Shown here piece after piece: positions 17,981 through 18,216 of a DNA stretch of 64,000 nt. Origin of the DNA: an uncultured Clostridia bacterium (GTDB lineage Bacteria > Bacillota > Clostridia > TANB77 > CAG-508); NCBI GenBank assembly GCA_934183325.1, contig CAKPSH010000004.1:27433-91432 (forward strand). Direction: 5' to 3'. Position 1 is the stretch's first letter, and each line of letters starts with the position of its first letter. Both the position numbers and the translations under genes were made by a program. The notes under the pieces are model-generated. The model saw only the letters and a program-made list of their open reading frames with translations, was not told where the DNA came from and did not search any database.

Positions 17981-18216
17981 ACTATATTAAAGATTAAAAT
18001 CATCTAGAATATTTTATAAGAGCCAGATTATTTATATATAATATTTAAAGCTTTCCGTTCTTCAAGGCGTTTAATATACTGATAATTCCTATATTAGATA
18101 CACACTCTGCCCAATATAATTTAGCAAATTGGTCAAGGTCGAACTCAGTTTTAAATATTATATATAAATTCTGGCTTAGCCTAAACACAACAGATGATTT
18201 TAATCTTTAATATAGT
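17981..18216. repeat. 25-bp perfect inverted repeat pair bracketing 186 bp (MITE-like or large hairpin)
   Basis: 17981-18005 actatattaaagattaaaatcatct is the exact reverse complement of 18192-18216; an inner imperfect IR (gagccagatta / aattctggcttagc) also pairs. Confidence 0.5.

Follow-up and report, generated by a model that had tools for sequence, protein, structure and literature searches.

What does a segment bounded by long inverted repeats do in the spacer between murC and spoVG, two divergently transcribed genes of an uncultured gut Clostridia bacterium? The stretch analysed here, hereafter the window, comprises 64 kb of contig CAKPSH010000004.1, in which murC (16513–17895, minus strand, 460 aa as called on related contigs) and spoVG (18364–18642, plus strand) are separated by 468 bp. 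A preliminary description of this DNA, which put the spacer at about 400 nt, proposed either a miniature inverted-repeat transposable element (MITE) or other derivative of an insertion sequence (IS), or else a very long RNA stem-loop or small RNA. The same locus in other strains gives a different answer: because 9 of 23 sequences, with flanks that remain collinear, carry the segment between the repeats in inverted form, it is an invertible DNA element, beyond a mere hairpin.

The element consists of two nested inverted repeats around an asymmetric centre. The outer repeat, TACTATATTAAAGATTAAAATCATCT, occupies 17980–18005 and is the exact reverse complement of 18192–18217, with 186 nt between the arms; the 25-bp perfect terminal repeats reported earlier are real, and each extends one base further, to 26 nt. 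The imperfect inner repeat, also reported earlier, is confirmed at 18030–18052 and 18147–18169 (23 nt, 96%, 94 nt between the arms) and is extended by AGCCAGA at 18021–18027 and TCTGGCT at 18170–18176. Each whole arm is about 71–73 nt long and complementary at 64 of 77 positions, with a mismatched 15-nt linker separating the outer and inner blocks. Across the window, no other pair of inverted repeats within 1.5 kb is as long as the outer or the inner one, and the outer 26-mer matches at its two sites only, with up to three mismatches allowed; two matches occurred in none of 100 shuffles. In window coordinates the parts are:

17980–18005, no strand: left outer inverted repeat, 26 nt, the inversion boundary at this locus; the adjoining linkers swap sides in flipped contigs
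18006–18020, no strand: left linker, the mismatched part of the long arm, with two haplotypes among strains
18021–18052, no strand: left inner inverted repeat, AGCCAGA plus ATTTATATATAATATTTAAAGCT, at the same position in every member of the family described below and locus-specific in sequence
18053–18146, minus strand: conserved asymmetric core of about 94 nt; the motif strand is the minus strand in the window
18053–18072, plus coordinates: core motif TTCCGTTCTTCAAGGCGTTT, reverse complement of AAACGCCTTGAAGAACGGAA
18085–18088, plus coordinates: core motif ATTC
18100–18108, plus coordinates: core motif ACACACTCT, reverse complement of AGAGTGTGT
18137–18144, plus coordinates: core motif GGTCGAAC, reverse complement of GTTCGACC
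18147–18176, no strand: right inner inverted repeat, from the repeat search
18177–18191, no strand: right linker, whose reverse complement adjoins the left outer repeat in flipped contigs
18192–18217, no strand: right outer inverted repeat, 26 nt, a perfect match to the left arm

The 23 sequences are the window itself and 22 metagenome contigs (human-gut metagenomes, same species), found by exact look-up of the SpoVG and MurC proteins, with L035 added by a motif scan. The window orientation is present in 14 of them, the window and 13 contigs; in the other 9 (L001, L002, L005, L008, L009, L054, L055, L081 and L082) the interior is reverse-complemented and the linkers are swapped. The flanks are collinear throughout, with about 1% substitutions. 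Within the outer repeat, two bases before its inner end (18004 in the window), a C/T variant travels with the interior; the crossover therefore lies in the outer ~24 nt. The left linker reads AGAATATTTTATAAG in window-like contigs and is of the AAAATATTT-GTTAT type in the flipped strains as well as in L004, which has the window orientation. Each of the two core-spacer haplotypes is found both ways round, c1 in the window and, turned around, in L001, c2 in L010 and L035 and, turned around, in L008 and L009, and orientation is not monophyletic on the tree built from the flanks.

Could the two orientations come from short-read assemblers, which may mis-orient a segment between identical repeats? 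The contigs are indeed metagenome assemblies, and one Logan contig, L087 (SRR29980934_15427), breaks off within the element where the right inner repeat starts, which low coverage or a mixed population in that sample could explain. The repeats, however, measure 18–26 nt and are shorter than the k-mers: the k141 prefix of the MEGAHIT contigs fits a last k-mer of 141, Logan assembles with k = 31, and the final k of SPAdes is typically 55 or more. Flipped and unflipped contigs also differ in their interior haplotypes and in repeat-end variants that move with the interior, and the outcome is the same across independent samples, assemblers and loci. We regard the chance of an assembly artefact as negligible.

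The element is a member of a family defined by its core. A 19-mer of the outer repeat gave 22 single hits in a scan of a genome collection, none with BLAST similarity to the window, and the window's own species was not recovered in that scan. Contig L028, from an uncultured Clostridium sp., led to the family: 168 nt from its 19-mer match, a 24-nt perfect repeat surrounds exactly 94 nt that have motifs in common with the window's centre. The motif pattern then yielded 19 metagenome loci which, with the window locus, make up 10 distinct loci, nine of them beyond murC/spoVG. On the motif strand the core reads ..GA GTTCGACC, 27 or 28 nt, AGAGTGTGT, 11 nt, GAAW, 12 nt, AAACGCCTTGRAGAAC GGAA. The three long motifs are invariant in 17 aligned family sequences (alignment A2); the spacers vary in sequence and, counted by hand, are near-constant in length. 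With a hidden Markov model (HMM) of the core, each locus gives exactly one copy (E = 1e-17 to 1e-24), and neither this model nor BLAST finds a second copy within the window. The arms that directly flank the core differ in sequence from locus to locus yet stay complementary; they are imperfect and 24–80 nt long, often made of a perfect outer and a perfect inner block, and in several members the outer perfect block stands 45–60 nt from the core. The interior had been described as free of open reading frames (ORFs): a mechanical ORF of 47 aa does run through it (18045–18188, minus strand), and by inspection, stop codons or a frameshift interrupt this frame in other members of the family.

Inversion is seen at other loci of the family. 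Between upp and gerA, contigs L068 and L069 have flanks identical at 199 of 199 and 4359 of 4363 positions and differ by inversion of a 185-bp interior between 18-nt repeats; with ten further contigs (L089–L098 listed), the orientation is one way in 10 and the other way in 3. Both gerA alleles occur on each of two flank backgrounds that differ by 2.3%. As a separate observation, the differences between the gerA alleles are concentrated in two places, one linker and the spacer that runs from AGAGTGTGT to AAACGCC, with flanks 99.9–100% identical. At a locus between a metallophosphoesterase gene and a gene for a SpoIVB-like S55 peptidase, the interiors of L046 and L099 are identical at 177 of 177 positions after inversion (left flank 1681 of 1688). 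L038 and L041, from another organism, differ by inversion of 146 nt, comprising the core and the inner repeat, with the inner block as the boundary. Flips are found at all four loci for which more than one distinct allele was sampled, and recurrent inversion is supported by the haplotypes found in both orientations, by the non-monophyly of orientation and by the S55 flip, which involves no change in sequence.

Several of these copies appear to belong to one organism. The window and gerA loci are both present in ERZ27287342, ERZ4561109, ERZ28614545 and ERZ28616303, with coverages of 4.35 and 4.58 in ERZ4561109; ERZ28616226 contains the window and S55 loci, and assembly OIZF01 contains all three. 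Judged by these shared samples and by similar coverage where it is visible, the window's organism carries at least three copies, at spoVG, gerA and S55.

The promoters of the neighbouring genes and a promoter-like site inside the element are placed in the window as follows:

17930–17958, minus strand: strong sigma-70-type promoter of murC, TTGAAA-17-TATAAT, 11/12 in a consensus scan; block kept in relatives that lack the element
18038–18065, minus strand: candidate promoter-like site within the element, TTGAAG-16-TATTAT, 9/12 in the scan
18276–18302, plus strand: sigma-H-type promoter of spoVG, GAAGGAAAA-11-GACGAAT, read from the sequence; block kept in relatives that lack the element

The sigma-H consensus of B. 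subtilis is RNAGGAWWW-11/12-RNNGAAT. Both gene promoters lie outside the invertible segment, the −35 hexamer of murC starting 22 nt from the left repeat and the spoVG promoter lying 59 nt from the right repeat, and the element sits between them, upstream of both. In the candidate site, the −35 hexamer TTGAAG falls within the invariant core motif AAACGCCTTGRAGAACGG, and the −10 hexamer TATTAT is part of the inner repeat and adjoins the AAACGCCTTGAAGAACGG motif. In the window orientation the site faces murC, in the flipped one spoVG, and by eye most family members have an equivalent TTGRAG with a TA-rich hexamer 15–18 nt downstream.

Directly after the right repeat comes a mini-ORF of nine codons, MNFSKFCKK (18246–18275), with a strong AGGAG ribosome-binding site at 18233–18237 and a stop codon directly next to the −35 element of the sigma-H promoter. 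All strains have this mini-ORF, with a single S/L difference. The possibility that it is a relic of the start of a surface-protein gene of the L028 type was rejected because the ATGAAC region is also found in relatives without the element.

Might the conserved centre act as RNA? On this reading the arms would form the closing stem of a long hairpin with a conserved loop, which would act either as a small RNA gene or as a leader regulating in cis. Either strand is predicted to fold very stably (about −79 kcal/mol each; z = −10.8 and −9.3), the stems differ by locus and remain complementary around conserved loop motifs, and RNAalifold can pair AGAGTGTGT with ACGCCTT and GTTC with GAAC. Complementary arms are explained equally well by DNA inversion or by arm correction, however, and within the core all 12 predicted pairs are invariant, which leaves no covariation there; two-sided changes occur only in the arm stem, and by inspection the internal hairpins are out of register between members. 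No Rfam family credibly matches the window element at E values up to 10, the only hit being SNORD77 (16.6 bits, E = 9.5, far below the gathering score), nor do six other family members match any at E up to 1. The element also lies upstream of both neighbouring promoters, with no conserved promoter or terminator evident and no terminator-like site inside it in a scan. The strand that would be transcribed changes between strains. A stem-loop or small RNA, as first suggested, finds no support in these results, and we consider a structured RNA of any kind very improbable.

A protein-binding platform would likewise be compatible with the core, whose invariant motifs keep a fixed spacing. Comparison by eye with sigma-70, sigma-H, sigma-E/F/G/K, extracytoplasmic-function sigma and sigma-54 promoters yielded partial resemblances, none of them family-wide, and the same holds for cre, CodY, SinR, Spo0A and SpoIIID sites, where none is conserved across the family; GTTCGAC, for instance, matches the 0A box at 6 of 7 positions and GAATTTTCAGTATATT the CodY box at 13 of 15. 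These candidates were set aside.

How did the element come to lie between murC and spoVG? In two related species, whose MurC is 79% identical, the murC–spoVG spacer lacks the element and keeps both the murC and the sigma-H promoter blocks; a closer relative with 94% identical MurC (L054, L055) has it. This absence from two relatives shows that the element was inserted between the two promoters, both of which predate it. The comparison with relatives lacking the insertion, proposed at the outset, thus bears out an acquisition, and the sequence is not of the single-copy kind conserved in all relatives that the preliminary description had set against a mobile element, for it belongs to a family of 10 loci. 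No target-site duplication is seen in the flanks (...TTAGAG / element / TATAGA...), which show no direct repeat, and comparison with the empty sites reveals a loose AGAG/AGGAG resemblance only.

These findings bring in the most serious rival, a passive palindromic, MITE-like mobile repeat without a regulatory role, whose inversions would be rare by-products of its long inverted repeats, produced by template switching during replication or by homologous recombination of one arm with the other and preserved as old alleles. The terminal repeats, the dispersal over 10 loci, the three or more copies assigned to one organism and the presence or absence between related species all agree with the original MITE proposal; the further copies it proposed to look for are lacking elsewhere in the window and exist at nine other loci in metagenome contigs. 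There is no recombinase nearby. From copy to copy the outer repeats show no relationship, and the boundary may be the inner block or the outer one, which suggests that any repeat suffices. Orientation is coupled to diverged interior alleles on different flanks, as for old inversions with suppressed recombination, and both arms change together between close strains (L028 versus L036), as correction of one arm by the other would yield.

On the other side, it is the core and not the termini that is constrained; no termini are conserved between copies, and a transposase recognising termini would give the opposite pattern. Copy number is low (one in 64 kb), and the plasmid and phage records hold no related IS and, with blastn in distant mode, no homologous match to the window element beyond one spurious AT-rich hit. 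Three motif patterns found no family member among viral contigs either, where 11 hits to the loosest pattern fail the core HMM. Flips at all four multi-allele loci, one with an identical interior, would be a high rate for repeats of 18–26 nt, and the elements lie upstream of gene starts, often those of sporulation or surface genes. We think a passive repeat possible, if rather doubtful.

The coupled change of the two arms is seen at the surface-protein locus, where the inner repeat reads GCCTTAATAATAA.../...TTATTATTAAGGC in L036, L043 and L050 and GCCTTAGTAATAA.../...TTATTACTTAGGC in L028 and L039, with matching changes on both arms. The arms therefore co-evolve, which either arm-to-arm correction or selection for pairing would lead one to expect. 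The orientation of the element is the same in all 11 contigs of this locus. Separately, a 23-nt stretch of the window's outer repeat (TATATTAAAGATTAAAATCATCT) recurs, unpaired, at L028 2481–2506, in the 5′ leader of a giant secreted-protein gene (>2,500 aa) and 221 nt from this locus's own core copy; the same stretch is found in L037, L039, L040, L051 and L053, and a diverged version in L050. Two contigs of this type also encode a 518-aa large serine recombinase with a zinc ribbon (L028 206–1762; L051 6955–8511 in strand-flipped coordinates). It was rejected as the invertase: its gene is part of an insertion that interrupts a ZIP zinc transporter gene, of which a 93-aa C-terminal fragment is left, and it is absent from most contigs of the locus. 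In surface-protein contigs without this insertion, genes resembling pyruvate:ferredoxin oxidoreductase, judged by reading the proteins, follow directly.

We favour an active role, in which the murC/spoVG element is a family member placed as an invertible segment between two promoters, is flipped by a recombinase and carries a core of regulatory effect; on balance we hold this to be just on the probable side. That the 186-bp interior is turned around by recombination between the outer 26-nt repeats is shown by the natural variants. The enzyme would be a site-specific recombinase encoded elsewhere in the genome, like RecV in C. difficile. Since the core is asymmetric, a flip would change which neighbour it faces, and our best guess is that it carries an outward-reading promoter or a platform for a regulator. 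The window state might then add transcription towards murC and the flipped state towards spoVG, and the result would be differences in spoVG expression from strain to strain or from cell to cell. In a bolder version, the family would consist of mobile, self-contained switches of spore-forming gut Clostridia in which the 94-nt core and not the variable repeats is recognised by a dedicated factor encoded elsewhere. With copies upstream of spoVG, the gerA operon, the SpoIVB-like peptidase gene and cotJA-cotJB, inversion would then make sporulation and germination vary in a heritable and reversible way and so provide bet-hedging; this we judge unlikely.

Several results count against a recombinase-driven regulatory switch. 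No recombinase gene lies in the window or beside any family member, save the one in the unrelated insertion of L028 and L051, and no clear common site emerges from the outer repeats of this organism's three copies. The RecV pattern AWAGTWNCCNTTW-N6-WAANGGNWACTWT (PMC12282940) is not above background at the repeat ends, its best matches there reaching 14–15 of the 22 specified positions against a maximum of 18 in the window, where 156 positions score at least 15. Orientation, moreover, is largely coupled to the interior allele: the six further contigs that encode the window's MurC are all oriented as in the window and the two that encode MurC P0001 are both flipped, while the gerA alpha allele has one orientation in 10 of 10 cases and the beta allele the opposite in 3 of 3, the two alleles being only about 88% identical. 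This does not look like one sequence flipping fast; it points either to a strong bias of each allele, or to old inversion alleles with suppressed recombination, or to a hypervariable interior. A repeat-driven inversion independent of a recombinase is also possible. Finally, the neighbours' own promoters are both outside the segment, which is not the promoter-to-gene placement of classical switches, and the promoter-like site inside is weak (9/12) and AT-rich. Six such matches were found where 6.7 are expected, and such an arrangement easily arises by chance because the repeats are AT-rich.

What the family's other neighbours are lends the question its wider interest. Five of the 10 loci adjoin sporulation or germination genes, namely spoVG, a gerA-gerB-gerC operon, the gene for the SpoIVB-like S55 peptidase, cotJA-cotJB and the gene for a SleB-like hydrolase, whose 3′ end faces the element. 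The others adjoin the giant secreted protein (>2,500 aa), a pilin-like Big_2 protein with an XRE regulator, nrdG/rpiB and a replication-relaxation gene. All three copies in the window's organism are next to sporulation or germination genes, those at gerA and S55 upstream of them. The sample is small and the association is a lead, not a result, but the family may tune sporulation and germination genes. Switches that work by DNA inversion are known chiefly from surface structures, for example fimbriae, flagella, capsules and cell-wall proteins; here an invertible family stands beside core sporulation and germination genes in an abundant uncultured Clostridia species of the human gut. If orientation alters expression, this would provide a genetic route to variable spore formation and germination, the processes that decide the persistence and transmission of gut anaerobes. 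The unusual architecture, with an asymmetric conserved core, variable nested repeats and no adjacent recombinase, raises the question of what the inversion machinery recognises and how copies spread, and the core motif offers a simple handle in the search for more of them.

The window as a whole has a G+C content of 27% and carries housekeeping and sporulation genes, among them spoIVB, murC, spoVG, clpC, radA, disA and a ribosomal protein operon. Some further features stand apart from the element. Between spoVG and a conserved 39-aa ORF upstream of clpC (18896–19015) there is an indel of about 65–100 bp (window 18643–19351; compare L006, L007 and L010 with L001–L005). Upstream of spoIVB, about 12 plus-strand genes at about 2325–15062 (L011 3083–15796), which include proteins of 629 and 694 aa, have almost no Pfam matches; the exceptions in this run are a Hydrolase_3 protein, a minus-strand SASP gene and one weak match to a T2SSE ATPase. 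The run may represent an operon for secretion, a pilus or sporulation that has yet to be characterised. A 676-aa protein encoded at 28287–30317 has as its sole Pfam match the C-terminal domain of RNA polymerase alpha (residues 487–547), and an imperfect 21-nt inverted repeat (86%) at 33669–33689 and 34094–34114 encloses a 134-aa ORF (33699–34103).

Invertible switches are a known kind of element. The searchable literature holds no paper linking spoVG to an invertible element and no relevant paper with the core motif strings, which are likewise missing from two text supplementary files of PMC11892184; the architecture of the family and its association with sporulation genes appear to be undescribed in that literature. 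The closest relatives in form are the switches Cdi1–7 of C. difficile (cwpV, flgB, cmrRST, pdcB and others), inverted by RecV, a tyrosine recombinase; these too are intergenic, about 150–200 bp long, bounded by inverted repeats of about 20 nt and found in Clostridia. As here, repeats of different copies are unrelated: a recombinase encoded elsewhere flips several switches with unrelated repeats, and near-identical elements lie at Cdi2 and Cdi5 (PMC5903667). Repeat variants bias orientation in that species (PMC12282940). Unlike those switches, the family has longer, nested arms (up to 70–80 nt), a core conserved across species and loci, no match to the proposed RecV site, and a position upstream of the neighbours' promoters instead of in a 5′ leader. 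Its neighbours are sporulation and germination genes, whereas those in C. difficile are flagellar, surface and cyclic-di-GMP genes, and the inversions here are known from consensus contigs.

The promoter-bearing invertons of the Bacteroides and Akkermansia groups, known from surveys of the PhaseFinder type, also form families at many loci per genome, have a conserved, directional internal motif and come from gut metagenomes (PMC11892184). Their repeats are conserved within a group as the site of the recombinase and their internal motif is a recognisable promoter. In the present family, by contrast, it is the repeats that vary, and no promoter consensus compared with the internal motifs matches them. 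The Correia elements of Neisseria, like other promoter-bearing MITEs, are non-coding and intergenic, about 100–250 bp long, with terminal inverted repeats, are able to form hairpins and to carry promoters and an IHF site, and vary between strains in presence; they are high-copy, with conserved termini and a TA duplication, and in-situ inversion is not known for them. The family differs in its low copy number, variable termini, lack of a visible duplication and documented inversion in situ. The fimS switch of E. coli, a single-copy invertible segment of a few hundred base pairs, has 9-bp repeats and the dedicated recombinases FimB and FimE encoded next to it. Inside it lie a promoter and accessory sites for IHF and Lrp, and this interior is a model for the conserved, asymmetric core of fixed spacing that unites the family described here.

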